This document shows positions 6,605 through 64,000 of a stretch of DNA of 64,000 nt, one piece after another. The notes under the pieces are model-generated. The model saw only the letters and a list, made by a program, of their open reading frames with translations. It did no database searches and had not been told where the DNA came from. The translations under genes were made by a program, and so were the position numbers. Source of the DNA: an uncultured bacterium (lineage in GTDB: Bacteria > Omnitrophota > Omnitrophia > Omnitrophales > Aquincolibacteriaceae); NCBI GenBank assembly GCA_964562525.1, contig CAZLTL010000002.1, positions 82,468 to 146,467 on the forward strand, written 5' to 3'. Within the stretch, counting starts at the first letter, position 1. Each line of letters starts with the position of its first letter.

Positions 6605-8316
6605 AGAACAGAACAAATCGGCTTTCGGCTTTATTGCTTTTGCTTTCTCCGCTGTTTTTTTTCGGATCTTTTTCATCTTCTGCGATTGCCGCGGAGACCG
6701 TGTGGACGGAAACTTTGGCAAAAATTCCGGTTCAGCAAGGCGGCAGAGTGAAGCCCTTTGAAACGTTTGCGCGTGAAACCATTCTTTATGTTACGGGCAA
6801 AACAGCTTGGGAGAAAAAACCAGCCGTTGAAACGGTTTGGGATTGGATGGCGGCCCCGCAAAAATGGTTCAGTCAGCCTTTGATTTATGTCGGCGCTCCA
6901 CAGATTCGCGATGAATTCGGCCTCAAGCTGATTCGTAAACGTGTTTCACCCGAAGTGGTATTGGGGGAAAAAAACTTCGCGCAAAAAGTGCAGGATGCCA
7001 TTCACCGTCGCGAAAAGAAAGAGGCTCTTTCGTTCAATGATAAAAAGCGCATTGAAATTTATGAGCGTGCGGTATTCATGAGTCAGCTGGGTTCAGGCGA
7101 ATTGCCCGGCTGGATTCCTGAAACCAATAATCCGCATGGCGCGTGGATGCGCTTCAGTGATTTTGTAGCTGAAGAACCGAAAGAGTGGATGAAGGCTTTA
7201 CCCCGGGAAGCGGTTGATAACTTTAAAAAGTCTGCCGAGCAATTTGCTGCTGCTTTTCATGAAGGCGAAAGCGCTTTAAGCGTTAAAAATAAAGCCGCCG
7301 AAGATTTCAAAACGGCTTTGAGTTTAATTTGGAGCGGGGCGGGCTTGGTGATTGACCAAGGGACATTGGATCGGGAAATTTTTTACAACCGTCTGCATGC
7401 ATTCGGCCGCGGGTCTAAGCTTTATTTGATGGCGGCGCTTTTCTTTTTTGTGGCTTTGGTTTCGAATCGCCGACGCAAACAAGAACGCGATTATCCGCTT
7501 TGGGTGGGATTGGGTATTTATGCCGGCGCGATCGCGCTCCATGTTTTGGGTTTCTATTTACGCTGTTCTATTTCGGGACGAGCGCCTGTGACCAACATGT
7601 ATGAATCGATTGTCTGGGTATCGTTAGCCGCCGCGTTGTTTGCCGTCCCGATCTTTTTTTATTTGAAAAATGTCGCGGTGATGATCATGGCTTCTTGTGT
7701 CGCGGCATTAGGATTACTTGTTGCCGAATCTTTTCCTGCGGTGTTGGATCCTGCGCTATCTCCGCTTGTTCCGGTTTTACGCAGCAACTTATGGCTGACC
7801 GTGCATGTCTTAACCATCACGATGAGTTATGGTGCTTTCGCGCTGGCTTGGGCTTTGGGACATATTGTTGTTTTTGGTTATGTCTTCCGCAAGCAGACGG
7901 AAAGCTTGGCTTCGCTCGCAAACGCGGTTTATCGCGCGATTCAAATCGGCGTGGTGCTTCTCGCGGCGGGAACGGTGCTCGGCGGAGTTTGGGCGAATTA
8001 TTCCTGGGGCCGTTTTTGGGGCTGGGATCCGAAAGAAACCTGGGCGTTGATTGCCCTGCTTGGATACTTGATTGTTTTGCATGGCCGTTTTATCGGATGG
8101 TTTGGATCTTTCGGAATTGCCATGGGTGCGGTGCTCGCGTTTATGGGCGTTGTGATGGCATGGTATGGTGTTAATTTCGTGTTAGCTGCGGGATTGCATA
8201 GTTATGGTTTCGGCGGCGGGGGATATTCTTCGGTGTCCACGGTTGTTCTTTTGGATTTGGCTTTGATGGCCGCCGCTGCGTGGTTTTACCGGCAAAAGCA
8301 AAGAGGAAGCAAATGA
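6601..8316 (+). CDS. ccsA: Cytochrome c-type biogenesis protein CcsA (heme exporter / cytochrome c synthase subunit) with long N-terminal extension
   Basis: Trp-rich WWD signature ..WANYSWGRFWGWDPKETWALIALLGY.., multiple TM helices and a conserved His. Confidence 0.8.
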   Translation: MKNRTNRLSALLLLLSPLFFFGSFSSSAIAAETVWTETLAKIPVQQGGRVKPFETFARETILYVTGKTAWEKKPAVETVWDWMAAPQKWFSQPLIYVGAPQIRDEFGLKLIRKRVSPEVVLGEKNFAQKVQDAIHRREKKEALSFNDKKRIEIYERAVFMSQLGSGELPGWIPETNNPHGAWMRFSDFVAEEPKEWMKALPREAVDNFKKSAEQFAAAFHEGESALSVKNKAAEDFKTALSLIWSGAGLVIDQGTLDREIFYNRLHAFGRGSKLYLMAALFFFVALVSNRRRKQERDYPLWVGLGIYAGAIALHVLGFYLRCSISGRAPVTNMYESIVWVSLAAALFAVPIFFYLKNVAVMIMASCVAALGLLVAESFPAVLDPALSPLVPVLRSNLWLTVHVLTITMSYGAFALAWALGHIVVFGYVFRKQTESLASLANAVYRAIQIGVVLLAAGTVLGGVWANYSWGRFWGWDPKETWALIALLGYLIVLHGRFIGWFGSFGIAMGAVLAFMGVVMAWYGVNFVLAAGLHSYGFGGGGYSSVSTVVLLDLALMAAAAWFYRQKQRGSK

Positions 8317-9194
8317 AGAACTTATACCGATTCAGTCTTTTTACCGCTTTTTCAGGCGCGGTTTTGATTGTTGCCGGCGGGCTGGTTAAAAGCCATGAAG
8401 CCGGTTTGTCCGTGCCGGATTGGCCGCTTTCTTACGGTGAATGGATGCCGCCGATGGTCGGTAAAATTTTTTGGGAACACGGACATCGCATGATCGCGAC
8501 CTTTGTCGGATTTTTGACTTTGATCGGAACATTTTGGACGCATTTCACCAAAGGCGCGTCTTCTTCTTTAAAAAGCTTTTCCCGAGTTTTGGTTTGGCTT
8601 GTGATTTTGCAGGGGGTTTTTGGCGGAGCGACCGTGCTTTTGAATTTACCCCCGATGGTATCGATTATTCACGGTGTTTTAGGGCAGGTGTTTTTCTCAG
8701 CTCTTTGTCTTTTTGCTTACGCGGTGAAGCGCGAAAGCGAGCCGCTTCAGTTGACGCTTTCAGATGAAACAAAAACCCGCCTCGAAAAGGCTTTTCGTTT
8801 AGCGCGGGTCACTTTATTTATTTTTCTTTTTCAGCTTTTGCTGGGCGCGGCAACGCGGCATCTTCGGCATTTACACATCGCGTTAACACATACCGTTTTT
8901 GCGTTAGTGGTCGTAGCGCATGTTATTTTGGTTTACCTCCGAGTTTCACATTTAGAACTGAAAGACAAAGGCTTGTCACAAACCGCGCACTTCTTACTTG
9001 CCGCGGTTATGCTGCAAGTTGTGCTGGGCGCGGGTAGTTTGGGGTTTACCCAGCTGATGGCTCGTTTGCAAGATCCGTCACAGGCGCAAATCGTGTTTAC
9101 GACGTTCCATCAAAGTTTGGGCGCGGGGCTTTTGGCTGCCATGGCGCTTTTAACCTTGATGCTTTCAAAACGGTTAAACGCAGCTACCCGCTGA
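8313..9194 (+). CDS. ctaA: Heme A synthase (COX15/CtaA family)
   Basis: ..VKSHEAGLSVPDWPLSYGEWMPP.. matches the CtaA/COX15 motif; polytopic membrane protein with conserved His. ATG 8313 overlaps the ccsA stop; the track start is 8280. Confidence 0.7.
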   Translation: MKNLYRFSLFTAFSGAVLIVAGGLVKSHEAGLSVPDWPLSYGEWMPPMVGKIFWEHGHRMIATFVGFLTLIGTFWTHFTKGASSSLKSFSRVLVWLVILQGVFGGATVLLNLPPMVSIIHGVLGQVFFSALCLFAYAVKRESEPLQLTLSDETKTRLEKAFRLARVTLFIFLFQLLLGAATRHLRHLHIALTHTVFALVVVAHVILVYLRVSHLELKDKGLSQTAHFLLAAVMLQVVLGAGSLGFTQLMARLQDPSQAQIVFTTFHQSLGAGLLAAMALLTLMLSKRLNAATR

Positions 9195-9200
9195 TTTTTT

Positions 9201-10049
9201 GTGTTAAAAGTTCTTTCCGAGCTGACAAAAATTCGGCTGGTCTTTTTGACCGTGATGAGTGCGATGGTCGGCTTTTATTTAGCGCCCGAAGCTTTCCGCT
9301 GGGGTGATTTTGTTTGGATGACGCTTGGGACCGGTCTTGCCGCCGCCGGCGCGATGGCTTTGAATGAGTGGATGGAGCTGGATGAAGATAGCCGGATGAA
9401 GCGCACGCAAAACCGTCCGCTGCCTACCGGAAAAATCAGACCGAATCCGGCGTTTTGGATTGGATTTGGTTTTTGCGCGGCCGGTTTGGCGCTTTTGATT
9501 TTAACCGGTTCTGAGCTTTGCGCGTTGGTAACCATCGCGATTGTCGGCTCGTATCTTTTTGCTTATACTCCGGCCAAGAAACGCTCTTCGCTCAATACGA
9601 TTTTGGGCGCCATACCGGGAGCGTTACCTCCGGTTGCGGGTTGGGCGGCGAGCTCGGGCGCAGTGCCTTTTCAGGCTTGGGTTTTGGCGAGCATTATTTT
9701 TTTATGGCAGTTGCCGCACTTTTTGTCTTTGGCGTGGGTGTATCGCGAAGATTATGAAAAGGCCGGCTTTGTGATGCTGACCGTGGAAGAAAAAAATCCC
9801 GCGCGCATCCGTGAAAAGCTGATGCTGTATACTTTCGCCTTGGTACCGGTCAGTTTGATTCCGTCTTTGGCGGGCATGACCGGAAAAATTTACTTTTTAG
9901 GCGCATTGGTTTTAGGTGTTTTGTTTTGCTGGAAAGCGGTGAAAGATTTACGCGATCTTGATAAGGGCGCGAAACCTTTTTTTCTTTATTCTGTTTTTTA
10001 TTTGTTTTTGCTTCAGATTTTGATGGTCGCCGACAAAGTTCGGCATTAA
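9201..10049 (+). CDS. ctaB: Protoheme IX farnesyltransferase (heme O synthase, UbiA family)
   Basis: NEWMELDEDSRMKRTQNRPLPTGKI is the UbiA prenyltransferase D-rich motif; second motif ..YREDYEKAGF..; 7-9 TM helices. Confidence 0.8.
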   Translation: MLKVLSELTKIRLVFLTVMSAMVGFYLAPEAFRWGDFVWMTLGTGLAAAGAMALNEWMELDEDSRMKRTQNRPLPTGKIRPNPAFWIGFGFCAAGLALLILTGSELCALVTIAIVGSYLFAYTPAKKRSSLNTILGAIPGALPPVAGWAASSGAVPFQAWVLASIIFLWQLPHFLSLAWVYREDYEKAGFVMLTVEEKNPARIREKLMLYTFALVPVSLIPSLAGMTGKIYFLGALVLGVLFCWKAVKDLRDLDKGAKPFFLYSVFYLFLLQILMVADKVRH

Positions 10050-10055
10050 GGCTTT

Positions 10056-10994
10056 ATGATTCGTATCCAAAATTTGGAATTCAGTTACGGAAAAAGAAAA
10101 GTTTTAAACAATGTTTCCCTCGATATTCCCGAGGGAACGATTTTTGGCATGCTGGGACCCAATGGTTCCGGCAAAACAACTTTGTTCCGAATACTCAGCA
10201 CCTTGCTTTCACCCGAAAAAGGCAGCGCGACCTGGTTTGGGCACGATTTATTTTGCGAAGCTTCCGCGGTGCGTGAAACTCTGGGGATTGTTTTTCAATA
10301 CCCCAGTTTGGACGCACAGCTGACCGTTGAAGAAAATTTAAAATGTCAGGGCGCGCTTTATGGCCTGAGCGGCGCTGATTTAAAACAAAGAATTGAAGTG
10401 CGCCTAAAGAAGCTTGGTGTGTGGGATCGGCGAGGCGATAAAGTCAAAACTCTGTCTGGCGGACTGAAGCGGCGCGTGGAGCTTGCCAAGGCGCTTTTGC
10501 ATGATCCGCAAGTTTTGCTTTTGGATGAACCCTCGACCGGTCTTGATCCTCGCGCGCGCGCCGAGTTTTGGGATTTTCTTTTGGAGATGAACCGCGAAAA
10601 AAAAATGACGCTTTTGGTGACGACGCACATGATGGAAGAAGCCGAAAAATGTTCACAGCTTGTGATTTTGGACAGGGGCGAGGTGATCGCCCAGGGTTCG
10701 CCCGCACATTTAAAAGCGGAGTTATCGGAAGGGTATATTTTAATTGAAACAGCGGCGCAGGATGAGCTTGCCGAAGAAGTGACACGCATATTTCAGGCGC
10801 GCGTTGAAAAAACGGCCCGAGGACTTCGGATTGAAAGCGCCGCGCCTCAAAAACTAATGGCGGATTTAGTGGCGAGGTTTTCCGAAAAAGTAAGTTCGGT
10901 TGCTTTTCATCGGGCTAGTTTAGAAGATGTTTTCTTGAAAAAAACAGGCCGCTCGTTTGACAGCGAGGAAGAGACTATCCATGCAAAAAAATAA
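10056..10994 (+). CDS. ABC transporter ATP-binding protein (ABC-2 / NosF-like exporter ATPase)
   Basis: Walker A GPNGSGKTT, signature LSGGLKRRV, Walker B LLLDEPSTGLD, H-loop. Confidence 0.85.
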   Translation: MIRIQNLEFSYGKRKVLNNVSLDIPEGTIFGMLGPNGSGKTTLFRILSTLLSPEKGSATWFGHDLFCEASAVRETLGIVFQYPSLDAQLTVEENLKCQGALYGLSGADLKQRIEVRLKKLGVWDRRGDKVKTLSGGLKRRVELAKALLHDPQVLLLDEPSTGLDPRARAEFWDFLLEMNREKKMTLLVTTHMMEEAEKCSQLVILDRGEVIAQGSPAHLKAELSEGYILIETAAQDELAEEVTRIFQARVEKTARGLRIESAAPQKLMADLVARFSEKVSSVAFHRASLEDVFLKKTGRSFDSEEETIHAKK

Positions 10995-11757
10995 ATCTCA
11001 GCACGGGGGATGGGGCGCTGTGGGAATGCTTTGGTGGCGCGAAGTGATCCGTTTTTACCGTCAGCCCAGCCGGGTTGCCGCAGCCATTTTGTCGCCCTTT
11101 CTTTTTTGGTTTTTGATCGGGTCGGGCGTCGGGCGCTCTTTTTCGGCAAGCGGAGAATCCTATTTGAATTATTTTTTTCCGGGCTCGATTTTACTTGTGA
11201 TTTTATTTGCCGCTGTTTTCTCGACGATTTCCATCATTGAGGACCGCCGCGAAGGCTTTCTTCAGGCTGTCATGGCATCACCCGTGTCGCGCGCGTCCAT
11301 TCCGCTCGGGAAAATTTTAGGCAGCGCCACATTAGCTTTTTTACAAAGCGGCTTATTCATTCTTTTAGCATGGGTTGCGGGCATCCGTTATTCTGTTGCG
11401 CAGCCTTGGGCGATTGTCGCCGCGGTCGCCCTGGCGTCGCTCTTATTCGCGACACTCGGGTTTTTAATGGCCTGGCAATTCCGTTCAATTCAGGGTTTTC
11501 ACGCGGTGATGAATATGCTGTTGATGCCCATGTGGTTTTTGTCGGGAGCTCTATTTCCTGCGGAAGGAGCTTCCGGTTGGATTCAGTTTTTGATGGCAAT
11601 TAACCCGCTTTATTACGGGCATCAATTTTTAAGCGCAGCTTTCGGCAATGCCGCGGCCGATGCTTCGGGCTCGGCTTTGATTATGCTTGCTTCTGTTTTT
11701 GCTCTTTGGATTTTGGCGGCTTTTCAAGTTGCCAAGAAAAAAGGAATGGATTCTTAA
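10981..11757 (+). CDS. ABC-2 type transporter permease (NosY-like)
   Basis: Six-TM hydrophobic profile; overlaps the stop of the preceding ATPase gene; the track start is 10957. Confidence 0.7.
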   Translation: MQKNKSQHGGWGAVGMLWWREVIRFYRQPSRVAAAILSPFLFWFLIGSGVGRSFSASGESYLNYFFPGSILLVILFAAVFSTISIIEDRREGFLQAVMASPVSRASIPLGKILGSATLAFLQSGLFILLAWVAGIRYSVAQPWAIVAAVALASLLFATLGFLMAWQFRSIQGFHAVMNMLLMPMWFLSGALFPAEGASGWIQFLMAINPLYYGHQFLSAAFGNAAADASGSALIMLASVFALWILAAFQVAKKKGMDS

Positions 11758-30821: not shown

Positions 30822-32381
30822 ATGAGAATTGTTAGGCTTCAAAAAGCGGTTAGTATAATTGCTTCGGAAATTCGAAATAATATTGAGAATCATCGTCTGC
30901 CCAAATTGGTTCGAGATGAAATAAAGGCAATCATTTCAGAGTATGTGGAAGAAATCTATAAAATCGCGGCCGTAAACTCTCTTGAAAAGCGAATTGTTGA
31001 GTTGAAGAAGGCGGATCTATCTTCTATAGCAAAAGTTTTGGACATTATTTTAGAATACCATCCCCCCAAATATACTCTTACTTTTGCGGATGAAAAAACA
31101 AGAGAAGTTGACCCGATACAAAAGATCAATGAGCTTAAGAGTTGGATTTCCAATGCTGATGGCAATCAAATTAAATTGGGCTCAATGGAAATATTATTTC
31201 GATTGGAGCTTGTTTTTGATTCCAAAATGAATGAGATAATGATGGCTTTTGAAAAGAGAAGCCCTGTTTTTAAGAGAGTCAAACAAGATGTTCTTGCTAA
31301 ACTTAAAAAAGTTAGAAAAGATGACCTGTTATTGTTGTGGGCAGATTTGAAATCTAAGTTTCGAAATAAAGATGATGATCATCACGGCTACGTTTTTTAT
31401 AAAGATATTATTCCTGAGGATTTTTGGGATATATCACCCAAGTCAATTTCGTTAGATGAGGTGGCGGAAAGATATGCAGATTTTATTGTCGAATATAAAC
31501 CGCTTACTGTGCGGAGAATGATAGCTGAAGGTTACAATGCTTACCCAGTTGGGCCATTGGGGATTGCCCGCAGCCTAGCCCTCTCCTCATCTCAAGGAAA
31601 AAATAATGTTTCGGAGTTTGATGTGTTGGTAATTCGAACTTTAAGCAAAGTTATTAGCCTTTTTGAGAAAATTACATATGCAAATAAATCAGAACTAGCC
31701 AGAGCTATTAACGCCAATCAAGACTCGTTTGTTTTTGACGGTGAGTTTTTTCAAGCCGCAAAAAAAGAATTGGAGGAAATGCGAAATAATTCGTCGGTGA
31801 GTTTTGTGGAAAGCCTTTCAGCGTCTATGGAAAGATTAAATAGCTACGCCATGGAAAATCAAAGTTCTGGCTCTAAAGTTGAAAGACTGCTCTTTAACTA
31901 TAAGCTCTCGCGTGAGGTTTCGCCCCCTGATATTTCAGCTGGTAAGAAAAATGAAATAGCTCTACAGAAGGATCTTTGTAAGTTTCTCATAGAGAATGAT
32001 ATTGTTGCATATGGGAAAATCTTTGGTAGAAGCCAAATTGATTTTTATATAAAAGAAGGGGAGCTTCCGATTGCTGAAGAGTATGTTGTGGAAACAAAAG
32101 TTTTTCGTAGAGGCAGGGCTGTTAATCCAAGTGTGATAAAGGCAAATTTAGTGCAGTTGCAATCTTACATGGATATTCACAAGCAGCCGCGCGGTATTTT
32201 GGCTATTTATAACTATTCGGATGATTTGATTTACGTGCCCGATAAACGTTGGTTGCATGGACAATACTGGATATTGGTGGTTAATATTGGGACAGCAACA
32301 GCAAGCAAAAGGAAAAGGTCTTTAAAAATCGTTGAATCAAGCAGCCCCAAAAATTTGATAGATATAATAGTTAATGCGTAG
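30822..32381 (+). CDS. Hypothetical 519-aa protein in an AT-rich (probably acquired) segment; no recognisable domain
   Basis: Long uninterrupted ORF at roughly 37% GC against a ~50% background; flanked by inverted heptamer arrays. The C-terminal region (..QIDFYIKEGELPIAEEYVVETKVF..) has a D..E.K arrangement faintly reminiscent of PD-(D/E)xK nucleases; this is inference only. Confidence 0.55.
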   Translation: MRIVRLQKAVSIIASEIRNNIENHRLPKLVRDEIKAIISEYVEEIYKIAAVNSLEKRIVELKKADLSSIAKVLDIILEYHPPKYTLTFADEKTREVDPIQKINELKSWISNADGNQIKLGSMEILFRLELVFDSKMNEIMMAFEKRSPVFKRVKQDVLAKLKKVRKDDLLLLWADLKSKFRNKDDDHHGYVFYKDIIPEDFWDISPKSISLDEVAERYADFIVEYKPLTVRRMIAEGYNAYPVGPLGIARSLALSSSQGKNNVSEFDVLVIRTLSKVISLFEKITYANKSELARAINANQDSFVFDGEFFQAAKKELEEMRNNSSVSFVESLSASMERLNSYAMENQSSGSKVERLLFNYKLSREVSPPDISAGKKNEIALQKDLCKFLIENDIVAYGKIFGRSQIDFYIKEGELPIAEEYVVETKVFRRGRAVNPSVIKANLVQLQSYMDIHKQPRGILAIYNYSDDLIYVPDKRWLHGQYWILVVNIGTATASKRKRSLKIVESSSPKNLIDIIVNA

Positions 32382-37904: not shown

Positions 37905-38035
37905 CGTTGAAAAGGCTTCGTCTGCGGCGTTAAATTCGTCACTCCCTTGTGCGGTGTAGGTTTCACTACACCTCCGCGGTCGTTCGAATTTGCCTAGCAT
38001 CCGAAACCTTTTGAACGACTTTTTGCAGACAAGAG
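37905..38035. repeat. Repeat family B (MITE-like, about 110 bp, terminal inverted repeats GTCGTTCAAAAG / CTTTTGAACGAC), copy B1
   Basis: Conserved core ..CGTCTGCGGCG...CTTGTGCGGYGTAGGTTTCACTACRCCTCCGCGG...GCCTAGCATCC..; TIRs read at both ends. Confidence 0.7.
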
Positions 38036-55412: not shown

Positions 55413-55427
55413 CTCGGCGATTGAAAA

Positions 55428-55550
55428 CAGCTCGTCTGCTTCGTTGCAAACTCGCAACTTTCGGTCAATGTGCGTTTTCAGCACACCTCCCTCACTTGCT
55501 CGTTTACGCCTAGCATCCAAGCTGTTTTGAATCACCTTTCATCTTAGGTG
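55428..55550. repeat. Repeat family B, diverged copy B4 (3' of the ATP-grasp gene)
   Basis: ..TTGAAAACAGCTCGTCTGC...CGCCTAGCATCCAAGCTGTTTTGAA.. has TIRs and the shared CGTCTGC and GCCTAGCATCC blocks, but the centre differs. Confidence 0.55.
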
Positions 55551-59705: not shown

Positions 59706-61025
59706 ATGAACACAGCCACACAGACAGATCAGCTCGATGTAAAACCTTTTCGCGCCTACCGGTACAACCCGGCACGCGTCGATTTCAAAAAAGTCATCGC
59801 ACCGCCGTATGACGTCATTTCACCGGCAAAGCAAGATCATCTCTATGGTTTGTCGCCGTTCAACGTGGTTCGCCTTATTCTGAATAAAAAAGAACCCGCA
59901 GATAACGATACTTTCAACACTTACTCCCGCGCCGCCGAAGCTTTCAACACTTGGATTCAAGAGCAAGTTTTCATGCGCGATGACAATCCTTGTTTTTATG
60001 TTTACCGTCAGTCTTATGTTGCGCCGGACGGCAAGCGCCGCGAACGCACCGCACTGCTCGGCAAAATCAAAGTTGAGCCTTTTGAAAAAGGTCTCATCAT
60101 TCCGCATGAAATCACTTTGAAAGGCCCGCGCGCTGACCGCATGAATTTGATCAAAAAAATTCACACTAATCTTTCGCCTGTATTCGGCCTTTATAAAGAT
60201 CAGGGCGGCGAAACGCATAAGCTCATTTCAAGCGCCGCGCAAGGCAAGCCTGTTTTTGACCTCATTGATGAAGACGGCATCGGTCAAACCATGTGGGTTG
60301 TTACCGACCACAAACTTTGCCAGCAAATTTCCGAAAGCTTCAAAGATAAAAAAGTTTATATCGCCGATGGTCATCATCGTTATGAAACTTCACTTGAATA
60401 CGCTCAGCTCAAGCGCGCCGAAGAAAAAACACCGCCGAAAAGCGCTCAGCCTTACGATTACACTTTGATGGCTTTCGTTTCTTTTAGTGATCCCGGATTC
60501 ATGGTGATGCCGACGCATCGCCTCATGATCAAGCTTACGCTTCCGCAAGATCAAATGCTGGCTCAGCTCAAAACACAATTTAATGTTGAAGAAATTGCCG
60601 CAGAGAAAATCGAATCCACTTTAGACAATGGCCCCGATCTTCCGGTTCGTCTCGGCCTCGTTTTCAAAGATAAGTCTTATTTGCTTACGCTTAAAGATCC
60701 GCAAGCCGCGAAAAAAGTTCTCGGCTGGGACAAGCCCGACGTTTGTTTGGATTTGAATGTGAACATTCTTGGCTATCTTGTTTTCAGCAAACTTCTTAAC
60801 TTTCCCGCGGATAAATGGGAAGGTAACTTGAAGTTTGAGCATGAAGCCAAGCCTTCAATCGAAGCCGTTAAAAAAGGCGAAGTTGAAGCCGCATTCATTC
60901 TTAAAGCCGCTCCGATTGCGATGCTTGAGAAGCTGGGTGCGGTTCAGGAGAGAATGCCGCAGAAGTCGACGTACTTCTACCCTAAGTTAGCCAGCGGCAT
61001 TGTCTTCCACCACCACAGCGCCTAA
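59706..61025 (+). CDS. DUF1015 family protein
   Basis: N-terminus ..VKPFRAYRYNP.. and ~440 aa length match DUF1015; the track ORF begins at 59646. Confidence 0.55.
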   Translation: MNTATQTDQLDVKPFRAYRYNPARVDFKKVIAPPYDVISPAKQDHLYGLSPFNVVRLILNKKEPADNDTFNTYSRAAEAFNTWIQEQVFMRDDNPCFYVYRQSYVAPDGKRRERTALLGKIKVEPFEKGLIIPHEITLKGPRADRMNLIKKIHTNLSPVFGLYKDQGGETHKLISSAAQGKPVFDLIDEDGIGQTMWVVTDHKLCQQISESFKDKKVYIADGHHRYETSLEYAQLKRAEEKTPPKSAQPYDYTLMAFVSFSDPGFMVMPTHRLMIKLTLPQDQMLAQLKTQFNVEEIAAEKIESTLDNGPDLPVRLGLVFKDKSYLLTLKDPQAAKKVLGWDKPDVCLDLNVNILGYLVFSKLLNFPADKWEGNLKFEHEAKPSIEAVKKGEVEAAFILKAAPIAMLEKLGAVQERMPQKSTYFYPKLASGIVFHHHSA

Positions 61026-61029
61026 AATT

Positions 61030-61150
61030 CGCTGAAAATTGCCGTCTGCGGCGTTGCGAATCTCGCAACTCTCGTCAACGTATTAGCACATACGCCTCCT
61101 CAGTTACTCAATTCGCGCCTAGCATCCAATCAATTTTGATCGAATTTTTC
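61030..61150. repeat. Repeat family B, diverged copy B5 (3' of the DUF1015 gene, at the left edge of the terminal AT-rich island)
   Basis: ..GCCGTCTGCGGCGTTGCGAATCTCGC...ACGCCTCCTCAG...CGCCTAGCATCCAATCAATTTTGATCGAATTTTTCAAACG.. Confidence 0.55.
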
Positions 61151-61298
61151 AAACGCTGACAAAAGCTCGCACCTTGCTTGAAACCAATGGATGACTGTGT
61201 ACCCAAAACACCTTTGACAGGTCTTATTATCAGGCGGAGAATATTGCACTTATGCGATTTTATATTACGCATCTCCTCGTTACACTGCCAAAATCTCC

Positions 61299-62768
61299 AT
61301 GAAATTTTTAATCGATACAAATATTTTTATTCCATTAGAACCTACTCAGCCAAACGAAGTGGGGCAAAAGGCTGACCGTGCAGCTGAATTTTTTAGATTA
61401 GCCGCAGACAGTGGTAATCAGATTTATTTGCACCCTTTAATTAAGACAGACTTTGAGCGTGATACAAATAAAGATCGCCAAAAATTAAGAACTCAGATGT
61501 TAAAGCGGTATAGTTATTTGGTTAATCCGCCCGAATTGAATTCTGTGCTAAATGCAGTTATTGGGACGGCGCCGGAAGGCTCAAATGATTGGGTCGATAA
61601 CAATCTTATTTCGGCATTGCATGGTGATGCAGTTGATTATTTAGTTACAGATGATGACGAGATTCATAAAAAAGCTAAGAAACTAAATCTTTCCGACCGA
61701 GTTTTAACAACTAACGATGCAATAGGTTTGCTTGCAAAGTTTTATGACAAAGCATTGGTTCCGCCGCCTGCAGTTCAAAGCACGCAAGCATATTCATTAA
61801 ATGAAGCCGATCCTATTTTTGATGAGCTGAGGTCAAAATACCCTGATTTCGATGGCTGGTTAAAGAAATGTAAGCGTGAACATCGGCAGACGTGGGTGAT
61901 TGCCCCCTCGGAATCTAAGTTGGCAGCAATTTGTATAATTAAAAAAGAAACACCGGAGGAGTACGGTTTAACTGGCAAAGTAATGAAGGTTTGTCTTTTT
62001 AAAGTTAGCCCAGACTTTGCGGGCTATAGGTTTGGTGAACTTTTGTTGAAAGCAGTGTTTACGCATGCTCACGAAAATTCTTATGATGGATTATTCGTTA
62101 CAACTTTTTCAGAGCAGCAGCAGCTGATTAGAATGTTTAATGACTTTGGATTTATAGAAATATCAGAAAAAACAAATTTGGGCGAGGTGGTTTTAATAAA
62201 AAAAATGAAACCCACTACGAAGGACTATCAAAGCCTCGATTCTTTAACCTTAAATATTCGGTTTGGACCATTTGTAACGAAGTTTGAAAGCACCCCATGC
62301 TATATCATTCCGGTGCAGCCGCGATTTCATAGCCTTCTTTTTCCGGAAGCCGAGAAACAGGCATCGCTTTTTTCTGGCCAAAATCCGTTTGGTAATAGTA
62401 TCCGCAAGGCATATTTATCGCAGGCGGTTATAAAAACATTGCCGGAAGGCTCCAATATTTTATTTTATCGATCCGAAGATCAAAAAGCTGTTACAGTGCT
62501 AGGAATTGCAGAAACGACTATGCGATCGCAGGATGCTATGCAAGTAGCTCGTTTTGTTGGGAAGCGGACCGTTTACTCGTTTGAGGAGATTCAAAGGATA
62601 ACTGCAAAAGAAACCATAGTGATATTATTTCGTCAAATAAAAGTGCTAAAAGTGCCGATAACTTACGACGAATTGAAAGGCGCAGGCATTTTAAATGGTC
62701 CACCCCAATCCATTACAACTATTCCACAAGGAGGCATACCATGGCTAAAGACGAGACTGGAGATGTAG
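61299..62768 (+). CDS. Three-domain protein: N-terminal PIN-like nuclease, central GNAT acetyltransferase, C-terminal PUA/ASCH-like region (AT-rich island)
   Basis: MKFLIDTNIFIP.. with further conserved acidic residues (..VDNNLISAL.., ..DYLVTDDD..) fits a PIN domain. GNAT motif A ..VSPDFAGYRFGELLLKAV.. and motif B ..LIRMFNDFGFIE.. are present. C-terminal ~170 aa are uncharacterised. Codon usage is AT-rich at roughly 36% GC. Confidence 0.5.
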   Translation: MKFLIDTNIFIPLEPTQPNEVGQKADRAAEFFRLAADSGNQIYLHPLIKTDFERDTNKDRQKLRTQMLKRYSYLVNPPELNSVLNAVIGTAPEGSNDWVDNNLISALHGDAVDYLVTDDDEIHKKAKKLNLSDRVLTTNDAIGLLAKFYDKALVPPPAVQSTQAYSLNEADPIFDELRSKYPDFDGWLKKCKREHRQTWVIAPSESKLAAICIIKKETPEEYGLTGKVMKVCLFKVSPDFAGYRFGELLLKAVFTHAHENSYDGLFVTTFSEQQQLIRMFNDFGFIEISEKTNLGEVVLIKKMKPTTKDYQSLDSLTLNIRFGPFVTKFESTPCYIIPVQPRFHSLLFPEAEKQASLFSGQNPFGNSIRKAYLSQAVIKTLPEGSNILFYRSEDQKAVTVLGIAETTMRSQDAMQVARFVGKRTVYSFEEIQRITAKETIVILFRQIKVLKVPITYDELKGAGILNGPPQSITTIPQGGIPWLKTRLEM

Positions 62769-63127
62769 CATTATTATCCATTCACCCTAAATATGCCGAA
62801 GCAATTCTAGAGGGGCGCAAGAAGGTTGAGTTTCGAAAAATTAACTTCACAAAAGAAATAAAAGAAATATTTATTTACGCGACTAGCCCTATTCAAAAAG
62901 TTATCGGCACATTTAGCGTGAAAGAATTGGATTCAGATAGCCCTAAGTCTTTATGGAAAAAATATGGTTCCGTTGGTGAGATATCACATCGAGATTATAA
63001 GGATTATTATAAAAATCATGATGTCGGAATGGCTATAGTGATCGATTCAGCGAGTTCTTTCGAGAGCCCCATGTCATTATCAGACTTTGGTATTAATGTC
63101 GCGCCGCAAAGCTTTGTTTACTTATAA
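62741..63127 (+). CDS. ASCH domain protein (PUA-like fold)
   Basis: ..LLSIHPKYAEAILEGRKKVEFRK.. is a typical ASCH N-terminal beta-strand plus Gly-Arg/Lys motif; 128 aa; its start overlaps the upstream gene by 28 nt (translational coupling). Confidence 0.6.
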   Translation: MAKDETGDVALLSIHPKYAEAILEGRKKVEFRKINFTKEIKEIFIYATSPIQKVIGTFSVKELDSDSPKSLWKKYGSVGEISHRDYKDYYKNHDVGMAIVIDSASSFESPMSLSDFGINVAPQSFVYL

Positions 63128-63163
63128 GTTTTGGGGTGCATTCAAAGATAAGCGGTAAGAGGC

Positions 63164-63598
63164 ATGTCGGAAGATAAGTGGGAATACATATTGAAGCTAG
63201 ATGAGGAGCTGCTTAAGGGCGGCATAATATTATCCGAGTGGACCAGCGCTCTTATTCGGGATTCGGACAAAGCGTTCTGTGCCGACGCAAATATTGCAAC
63301 CATTGTGCTTGTTCAAGCTGGTTTAGAGTCTTACCTCAAGGCCGAATTCTTTTCCGATGACTCCACCGCCAAACTATCATTTTTTGAGATGATAAATGAT
63401 AGCTCTATGGATAAAAACTTAAAATGCAAAATGCATGATCTGCGGAAAAACCGAAACAAATGGATGCATATTAATGATCCCTGGGATGATGCTGCGCTTT
63501 TGAAGTATGGCGATAATTTTGAAAACACACTCGAGCAGGATGCAAAAGAAGCGATTAAACTACTGAGGCAAGTGATTTATCAAAATCCGTGCGTTTGA
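63164..63598 (+). CDS. Hypothetical protein with an Rx4H (HEPN-like) motif
   Basis: Predicted alpha-helical, 144 aa; ..LRKNRNKWMHIND.. contains R-N-x3-H, as in HEPN RNase active sites. Assignment is speculative. Confidence 0.4.
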   Translation: MSEDKWEYILKLDEELLKGGIILSEWTSALIRDSDKAFCADANIATIVLVQAGLESYLKAEFFSDDSTAKLSFFEMINDSSMDKNLKCKMHDLRKNRNKWMHINDPWDDAALLKYGDNFENTLEQDAKEAIKLLRQVIYQNPCV

Positions 63599-63641
63599 TT
63601 TTTTAAAAGTTGGAATTTTTTAAAGCTAACGAGATAAACAA

Positions 63642-64000
63642 ATGAATGAAATAGTAAAATTGGAAGAGGCCCAGCATTTTCTTTCTCTTTGCGAAAAAGA
63701 AAGTGGGAAAAAAGAGTTCCAATTTTATCTCAGCGCTTTTTTAAGCGCCTCTCGCAGCGTGCTGCAGTATGCCCGTGAAGAGGCCAAGCTGAAAGCCCAG
63801 GGACTAACTTGGTACAATAAATGGATGCAGACAGACGCGTTTATTTTTTTTAAAGATAAACGGGATTTTAATATTCATAGCGCCCCTGTTTCCTCGCGTG
63901 CAACTCATCATATTTCCGCAGAGATCAGCATTAAGGTATCCACTGCTGTAAAATTAGAAATAAGAGACAAAAACAACGTCCTCTTAGGTTCGCATGACTC
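63642..64000 (+). CDS. Hypothetical protein, 3'-truncated by the window end; has an Rx4H motif and a shared NKWM segment
   Basis: ATG 63642 and an open frame to the window end; ..NKWMQ.. and ..KRDFNIH.. echo the previous gene; AT-rich. Confidence 0.35.
   Translation, partial: MNEIVKLEEAQHFLSLCEKESGKKEFQFYLSAFLSASRSVLQYAREEAKLKAQGLTWYNKWMQTDAFIFFKDKRDFNIHSAPVSSRATHHISAEISIKVSTAVKLEIRDKNNVLLGSHD

Follow-up and report, generated by a model that had tools for sequence, protein, structure and literature searches.

What does the AT-rich DNA at the end of a 64,000-nucleotide (nt) stretch from an uncultured Omnitrophota bacterium encode, and is it a system of its own? The stretch (contig CAZLTL010000002.1, positions 82,468 to 146,467 of the forward strand; hereafter the window) closes with a segment, 61150-64000, which an original prediction had read as an acquired island of four genes forming an undescribed RNA-targeting conflict or toxin-antitoxin system. 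Gene 1 was taken to encode a fusion of PIN, GNAT and PUA-like domains, gene 2 an overlapping ASCH protein, and genes 3 and 4 two small proteins carrying R-x4-H motifs. We find that genes 1 and 2 are a pair which very probably represents a diverged member of the (PIN)-GNAT-EVE plus ASCH class, listed as the PADLOC defence candidate PDC-M11. The conflict or toxin-antitoxin interpretation remains the best one in our judgement, centred on this pair alone. The features that define the pair are as follows.

61299-62768, + strand, gene 1, 489 amino acids (aa), from the open reading frame (ORF) listing
61299-61748, + strand, gene 1 residues 1-150, PIN-like nuclease domain (Pfam in relatives, conserved acidic residues, AlphaFold model)
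61749-62213, + strand, gene 1 residues ~151-305, GNAT acetyltransferase domain (Pfam Acetyltransf_1, Foldseek)
62214-62765, + strand, gene 1 residues ~306-489, PUA-like reader domain of the EVE/ASCH fold (Foldseek match to ZmASCH, Pfam EVE in relatives)
62741-63127, + strand, gene 2, 128 aa, from the ORF listing, overlapping gene 1 by 28 nt

Identity of the gene 1-gene 2 pair

Using the PADLOC profiles, we found that PDC-M11A (PDLC04421) matches gene 1 at E 1.2e-179, with residues 1-488 aligned to positions 1-485 of the 486 in the profile, while PDC-M11B (PDLC04425) matches gene 2 at E 1.2e-44. The PADLOC PDC systems are 145 untested candidates identified through 'guilt by embedding' in known defence systems, being found within BREX, DISARM, type I restriction-modification (RM) or Hma systems (bioRxiv 10.1101/2024.01.29.577857). 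The same architecture has been described computationally. In the retrieved portion of Bell et al. 2020 (BMC Biol; PMC7641849), operons with (PIN)-GNAT-EVE fusions nearly always encode an ASCH protein, PIN-GNAT-EVE genes are frequently linked to type I restriction systems and also occur in prophages, and roles in toxin-antitoxin or virus-host conflict are predicted for these modules. That portion of the article traces the earliest description to Iyer et al. 2013 and calls every one of the modules uncharacterised (PMC7641849). In addition, a PIN-less pair situated between cI and kil of the Escherichia phage PhiR47_2 (GenBank PV340567.1, 2025) is annotated as GevT toxin and GevA antitoxin. Because the pair is already catalogued in PADLOC and described by Bell et al., the claim of an undescribed architecture fails.

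With the members of this class, the pair shares the three-domain fusion, the adjacent ASCH gene, a patchy distribution and links to mobile elements; it differs in having no AAA_17 ATPase or type I restriction system alongside. The closest sequence found for gene 1 is at most 52% identical, and source databases name its relatives RimI-like or YncA-like acetyltransferases. Gene 2 is 43% identical to GevA (E 1e-30), and gene 1 residues 167-453 are 23% identical to GevT (E 5e-20). In both pairs a large gene precedes a small one and overlaps it briefly, by 23 nt in the phage and by 28 nt here. GevT differs from gene 1 in its length (357 aa as against 489 aa), in having no PIN domain and in its location within a prophage immunity region.

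The two genes behave as a strict unit with a conserved overlap. We inspected 80 loci in species-representative genomes spanning many phyla, and in every one a gene 2 homologue lay directly 3' of the gene 1 homologue (80/80). The overlap was most commonly 28 nt (31 of the 80 loci), with 34, 25 or 31 nt in most others. No neighbour family beyond genes 1 and 2 occurred in more than 6 of 81 loci, three larger neighbour clusters being antisense ORFs within the two genes themselves. When 142 immediate neighbours of the pair were scanned, they proved to be mostly housekeeping genes, together with 3 type I specificity subunits, 2 ResIII helicases and 2 AAA_17 proteins.

We next consider the domains of gene 1, all three of which were assigned as originally predicted. 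In gene 1 itself, Pfam identifies the GNAT domain alone (Acetyltransf_1, 2.1e-7, residues 166-285) and gives no PIN match at E ≤ 1. Over 26 members of the family, it identifies GNAT in all 26, PIN_3 in 9 (best 8.9e-7), EVE in 6 and PIN_5 in 1. The PIN assignment is based on these matches in relatives and on conserved acidic residues. Because D6, E14, D55 and D119 are invariant in the family alignment and D100 is at least 90% conserved, the PIN domain is probably active. A PDB sequence search with the PIN region returned PIN-like RNA-free RNase P enzymes as its best matches, at non-significant values (E 0.13-0.33).

An AlphaFold model of gene 1 generated from the family alignment (predicted local distance difference test, pLDDT, 87; predicted template modelling score, pTM, 0.77) has alternating strands and helices in the PIN region. 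The top Foldseek match of the whole model is ZmASCH (5y6b, 5guq), the ASCH protein of Zymomonas mobilis, reached through the C-terminal domain (E 6e-8, target TM-score 0.76-0.79, 154 columns). The GNAT domain matches PaiA, NatD and the toxin TacT1 (7ak8, E 3.3e-5), all with probability 1.0, as well as a chain deposited as 'bacterial toxin' (7byy, E 7e-6). Between the C-terminal domain of gene 1 and the gene 2 family, hhalign detects a weak relation (E 3.6e-4, probability 37%).

Gene 2 is an ASCH protein, in agreement with the original prediction. It matches Pfam ASCH at 2.7e-4, above the gathering score, and its family profile retrieves ZmASCH from the PDB at 4.6e-29. ZmASCH is thus the closest solved relative of gene 2 as well as the best structural match of the gene 1 C-terminal domain, and, of the relatives of both PUA-like domains, it alone has been studied biochemically. 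ZmASCH (PDB 5GUQ, 5GUS; Kim et al. 2017) is reported to bind nucleic acids and in vitro to cleave single-stranded RNA weakly and in a Mg-dependent manner, with Tyr47, Lys53 and Ser128 being important, and to have no nuclease activity on single- or double-stranded DNA (PMC5615036). In the gene 2 family, Y46, the equivalent of Tyr47, is invariant, and a PQS segment containing S124, the equivalent of Ser128, is largely conserved. The equivalent of Lys53 is displaced by one in gene 2, where Q52 is aligned and K53 is adjacent. The general ASCH motif K-x-x-E-x-R is retained (K27, E30, R32). By analogy with GevA, gene 2 is a probable antitoxin or regulator.

NCBIfam PRK12279 ('50S ribosomal protein L22/unknown domain fusion protein') ends in an 'unknown domain' that gene 2 matches as well (7.9e-21, positions 183-310 of 311), so that some organisms have a ribosomal protein carrying an ASCH domain of the gene 2 type. 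At one pair locus (L005), a stand-alone ASCH-like ORF at 10441-10854, ~7 kb from the pair, matches both gene 2 (2.5e-7) and gene 1 (2.6e-4).

The pair is widespread, being found in many bacterial phyla, archaeal viruses, plasmids and prophages, and the gene 1 family alone comprises more than 1,291 clusters of full-length ~489-aa proteins. Both genes match PHROG phage families over their full length (8e-81 for gene 1 and 4.7e-36 for gene 2). Using tblastn, we found a PIN-containing copy in the archaeal prophage psiM100 (ORFD and ORF5, within 'inserted fragment IFa') and PIN-less copies in lambdoid Escherichia phages. Relatives of gene 1 are present in 32 plasmid records, with ZmASCH-like genes adjoining; in alpha-proteobacterial plasmids, the ASCH gene is often annotated as helix-turn-helix (HTH)-containing and lies upstream of the gene 1 relative.

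A strain-specific insert in a variable hotspot

How the pair came to lie in this genome can be read from the composition of the segment and from its absence in close relatives. The remaining features of the segment are listed here.

61024-61148, no strand, MITE-like (miniature inverted-repeat transposable element-like) repeated element of 125 nt at the left edge, with 18-nt inverted arms at 61024-61041 and 61131-61148 that are 89% complementary
61214-61242, + strand, sigma-70-like promoter match (TTGACA, 17 nt, GAGAAT; 10/12 positions; 2333-2361 on contig L001)
63164-63598, + strand, gene 3, 144 aa, with an RNKWMH motif at 63452-63469
63642-64000 (partial), + strand, gene 4, 181 aa in full, ending 187 nt beyond the window, with RDFNIH at 63861-63878

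The reported drop in base composition at ~61.15 kb and the accompanying change in codon usage are real, although the drop sets in at ~61.02 kb and the G+C content (GC) of 61150-64000 is 39.7% rather than the ~36% first given. The remainder of the window has 47.8% (standard deviation 1.7%; z = -4.7), and none of the 1166 other 2851-nt windows is as GC-poor. At third codon positions, GC is 0.35 in gene 1 and 0.34 in gene 2, compared with 0.50-0.54 in two flanking genes. The four genes and the 28-nt overlap were likewise as described: genes 1-4 are co-directional, and a fifth gene (157 aa, with a hydrophobic N-terminus) follows past the window end. Data beyond the window are from a public contig (L001) that is identical across a 5119-nt overlap. 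On this contig, the low-GC stretch stops ~0.9 kb beyond the window end, and the fifth gene is followed by an AHSA1/SRPBCC gene of normal composition.

After gene 2, the intergenic gaps are 36, 43 and 62 nt, with no convincing internal terminator. On the 5' side of gene 1 there is just intergenic DNA and a DUF1015 gene. The promoter match is the best site in the region and a consensus match only, the total count of such sites not exceeding that in shuffled controls. The left edge does coincide with the MITE-like element, a diverged copy of which lies at 55422-55530 (75% identity over 115 nt, E 6e-10). No direct repeats and no second copy of the element were found at the right edge. A 33-nt fragment of the element at 37992-38024 was also noted, and the element looks like part of a small dispersed repeat family in this genome.

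Comparison with close relatives delimits the insert. The upstream DUF1015 gene is present in three metagenomic contigs, with protein identities of 96%, 94% and 80%, none of which carries genes 1-5 (0/3). The flanks are ~88% identical to those of the relatives at the nucleotide level, and the relatives are without the insert. Homology to two of them (L093 and L094) ends at window position 61016, just 5' of the inverted-repeat element, and restarts ~35 nt beyond the stop codon of the fifth gene. The segment is thus a strain-specific insert of ~3.7 kb, extending from window position 61017 to ~64757. In the same slot, L094 carries two tandem pairs of Gp49 (HigB-like) and HTH_3 genes plus a RelA_SpoT gene in low-GC DNA (7626-11620), and L093 carries different genes, a PilZ protein among them. 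Because both relatives hold other genes in this position, the slot is a variable chromosomal hotspot that collects toxin-antitoxin or defence-type cargo, with related strains exchanging different cargo. The atypical GC, together with close relatives that lack the segment and have other toxin-antitoxin genes in its place, means that the segment was acquired, as had been proposed.

Two further features of the hotspot were observed. In the L094 slot, a 347-aa RelA_SpoT-domain protein is followed by a 248-aa protein of no assigned family, which may together form a toxic small alarmone synthetase module. At the right junction, a stretch at L001 5877-6096 (~0.76-0.98 kb past the window) has two copies in L093 (8984-9202 and 10148-10332; 94-96% identity) and one in L094. 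On our reading, the stretch includes a short ORF encoding a hydrophobic peptide of ~58 aa, and it may represent a boundary repeat of the hotspot.

Genes 3, 4 and 5 as neighbours of the pair

Do the genes downstream belong to the same system? Neighbourhood profiling indicates that the proposed four-gene unit does not hold, as genes 1 and 2 alone are constant: gene 3 homologues were found in 4 of 89 pair loci by profile search (L025, L033, L104 and L109) and gene 4 homologues in none of the 89. The fifth gene had no homologue in 80 genomic loci and no family match. Gene 4 and the fifth gene are unrelated cargo.

The R-x4-H motifs of genes 3 and 4 are real and conserved within each family. Across 54 homologues of gene 3, R94 and R97 never vary, and conservation of N98 and H102 is 90% or higher, giving R-N-x3-H. 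Pfam matches over the 54 members are to DUF4145 (26 members, best 4.9e-6), HEPN_Cthe2314 (8), HepT-like (6), HEPN_Swt1 (6) and RiboL-PSP (3); they are individually weak, and gene 3 itself gives none. DUF4145 is a family that we take to belong to the HEPN clan. On the basis of the conserved motif and these matches across the family, gene 3 is read as a HEPN-superfamily (DUF4145-like) protein and putative RNase, in line with the original suggestion. A PDB sequence search with the family returned nothing meaningful, and PADLOC has no model matching gene 3.

The family is small. An exhaustive profile search identified 231 representative clusters among 1.84 billion, whereas a word-indexed search identified 5. 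When loci were reached through gene 3 instead of through the pair, the pair was alongside in 2 of 5 (L100 and L101), and in L101 the order is gene 3-gene 1-gene 2 on one strand, with a gap of ~55-75 nt between genes 3 and 1. The pair was absent from the other three (L083, L084 and L102), where neighbours of the gene 3 homologue include TIR-domain genes (L083) and a nearby HicB (L084). By a rough estimate, chance adjacency of gene 3 and the pair is negligible because both families are very rare. These observations make gene 3 a recurrent facultative neighbour and no core component of the pair; its probable role is that of an optional accessory or of a second effector. The association is not mentioned in the retrieved portion of Bell et al. 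(PMC7641849). In contrast to HEPN/MNT systems, no nucleotidyltransferase (MNT) antitoxin gene lies beside gene 3 or gene 4.

In L083 (1669-3873), the gene 3 homologue comes straight after a trio of genes, of which two encode TIR domains (ThsB_TIR and TIR_2), and the HEPN family therefore also accompanies other defence-type genes.

For gene 4, 123 homologues of ~178 aa were found, with R74 unvarying and H79 conserved to 90% or more within FFKDKRDxNIH. It has no match in Pfam, PADLOC or PHROGs, a PDB sequence search with the family gave nothing meaningful, and no relatives were found in viral contigs. The predicted structure (pLDDT 80) combines a helical bundle with a beta region of lower confidence and a helix at the C-terminus. 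Compared with HEPN proteins, it has a beta-strand insert and no sequence-profile link, and generic four-helix bundles match it better. Homologues occur in an integrase island, between a type IIG restriction enzyme and an ATPase-HNH pair, in a transposase-rich region and in housekeeping surroundings. Gene 4 is best described as an unannotated ~180-aa family with a conserved RDxxxH, some members of which lie in mobile or defence regions.

Kinship between genes 3 and 4 had been suggested from a shared NKWM segment. These letters are present in both proteins, within the conserved motif of gene 3 and in a variable stretch of gene 4. The match is due to chance (BLASTP E = 81, hhalign probability 0.3%), and the kinship was rejected.

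A stronger role for these genes can be envisaged, in which gene 3 would be a working third component of a three-gene variant, a HEPN RNase coupled to and perhaps controlled by the pair (for example, as a further effector that acetylation or the ASCH protein turns on or off), and gene 4 would separately be a new single-gene defence protein. We regard the two propositions, taken jointly, as rather unlikely.

Roles of the pair and competing explanations

What, then, might the pair do? We favour, with moderate confidence, a conflict or toxin-antitoxin islet based on the pair, in which gene 1 would be the effector and gene 2 its antidote or regulator. That the pair itself has a toxin-antitoxin or defence role we consider reasonably likely, to about the same degree, while the RNA-directed details of the mechanism are tentative. 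By analogy with the annotation of GevT and GevA, gene 1 would act as a toxic effector. Its reader domain would dock it on nucleic acid, probably RNA such as a tRNA with a modified base, and GNAT acetylation of this target and RNA cleavage by the PIN domain would follow. Gene 2, whose conserved overlap would keep its output in a constant ratio to that of gene 1, would restrain gene 1 by binding it or by occupying the same ligand. Phage infection would then disturb the balance between the two proteins, releasing the effector and shutting down translation.

Among known modules, type II systems of the GNAT and ribbon-helix-helix (RHH) kind (TacAT, AtaRT and KacAT) are also comparable, with a GNAT fold resembling that of TacT1 and a two-gene mobile module. 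In the present pair, by contrast, the partner is a downstream ASCH gene and not an upstream RHH/DUF1778 antitoxin, and the GNAT domain is flanked by PIN and reader domains. A VapBC-type PIN toxin-antitoxin system was also considered and ruled out, as the PIN domain forms the N-terminus of a 489-aa fusion with no small gene upstream.

Several points weigh against the reading that we favour. The assignment of toxin and antitoxin roles goes back to the GenBank annotation of a PIN-less relative only 23% identical to gene 1, and a literature search on GevT/GevA, PDC-M11 and GNAT-EVE found no experiment on any PIN-containing member. Textbook GNAT enzymes have the cofactor loop R-x-x-G-x-G/A; because the loop in gene 1 is R-F-G-E-L-L, the catalytic competence of its GNAT domain is not certain. 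The target could be RNA, aminoacyl-tRNA or DNA. Enrichment in defence islands was not shown by the scan of the 142 immediate neighbours, which lists families and not the number of proteins hit. Gene order departs from that of classical type II modules, the small gene following the large one here and preceding it in alpha-proteobacterial plasmids. Finally, the association with gene 3 is rare (~4-5% of pair loci), and the position and orientation of gene 3 relative to the pair vary between loci.

The main rival is a DNA-based one, in which the pair would be a DNA-modification or modification-sensing system related to restriction-modification, a proposal that the retrieved portion of Bell et al. 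attributes to Iyer et al. 2013 (PMC7641849). On this view, acetylation of a DNA base would fall to the GNAT domain, recognition of the modified DNA to the EVE and ASCH domains and nuclease action to the PIN-like domain. Such a role would accord with the linkage to type I restriction and with HTH-ASCH and HsdS-ASCH fusions, which in that portion of the article point to DNA binding (PMC7641849). It would also accord with the embedding of PADLOC candidates in BREX, DISARM, type I RM or Hma systems and with the type I specificity subunits and ResIII helicases among the scanned neighbours. Most loci, however, have no adjacent restriction genes. PIN_3-type domains and GNAT toxins, moreover, are known mainly as RNA or aminoacyl-tRNA enzymes, which counts against a DNA target, as does the in vitro cleavage of single-stranded RNA, and of neither form of DNA, by ZmASCH, the only characterised close relative of gene 2 (PMC5615036). 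We consider the DNA-based explanation unlikely, and both a writer-eraser couple and an integrated multigene system less likely than this. In the former, the GNAT domain would make N4-acetylcytidine or a similar base and the ASCH protein would remove it in the manner of E. coli YqfB, a deacetylase-like function that the original prediction had entertained for gene 2. According to the abstract of the EOLA1 preprint, ASCH-fold proteins do include acetylcytidine amidohydrolases. The constant pairing of acetyltransferase and ASCH genes (80/80 loci) would suit a couple of this kind. Yet the close characterised relative of gene 2 is ZmASCH, none of the 8 PDB matches of its family profile at E ≤ 10 is annotated as YqfB or acylcytosine amidohydrolase, and gene 2 keeps the K-x-x-E-x-R motif, at whose Glu position YqfB has Thr. 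A YqfB-like role thus finds no footing in these comparisons, and we judge the writer-eraser explanation improbable.

A single RNA-targeting system that takes in all four or five genes would be in keeping with their common direction, the short gaps between them, the lack of a convincing internal terminator and the recurrence of gene 3 homologues beside the pair, including the single-strand arrangement in L101. The occupancy counts speak against it (gene 4 in 0/89, gene 3 in 4/89 and the fifth gene in 0/80 loci), as do the unrelated contexts in which gene 4 homologues stand alone and the TIR and HicB settings in which gene 3 occurs without the pair, and we regard such a system as decidedly improbable. 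Least probable of all, to the point that we largely discount it, is that these are ordinary housekeeping genes for RNA modification or acetylation that merely happen to be AT-rich. Their relatives do bear RimI-like and YncA-like labels and often have housekeeping neighbours elsewhere. However, the pair is absent from close relatives and scattered over phyla, plasmids and phages, its composition is atypical, and the slot holds toxin-antitoxin genes in a relative.

As one more diverged member of its class, this copy adds little alone. What the analysis adds is the strict two-gene unit with its conserved overlap, the recurrent family of small HEPN neighbours and the recognition of ZmASCH as the studied relative of both PUA-like domains; the remaining novelty is the HEPN association and the unannotated gene 4 family. 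In this pair, an acetyltransferase and a nuclease are combined with two domains of a modified-base-reading fold, and because of this combination the pair may use chemistry new to immunity, namely modification-directed acetylation of nucleic acid or charged tRNA.

Elsewhere in the window, a second low-GC patch was observed at 30822-32381 (36.9% GC in 31-32 kb). It contains a lone 519-aa ORF of no obvious identity, whose C-terminal part (IDFYI...EEYVVETKVF) resembles by eye a PD-(D/E)xK nuclease, and which may be another acquired gene.

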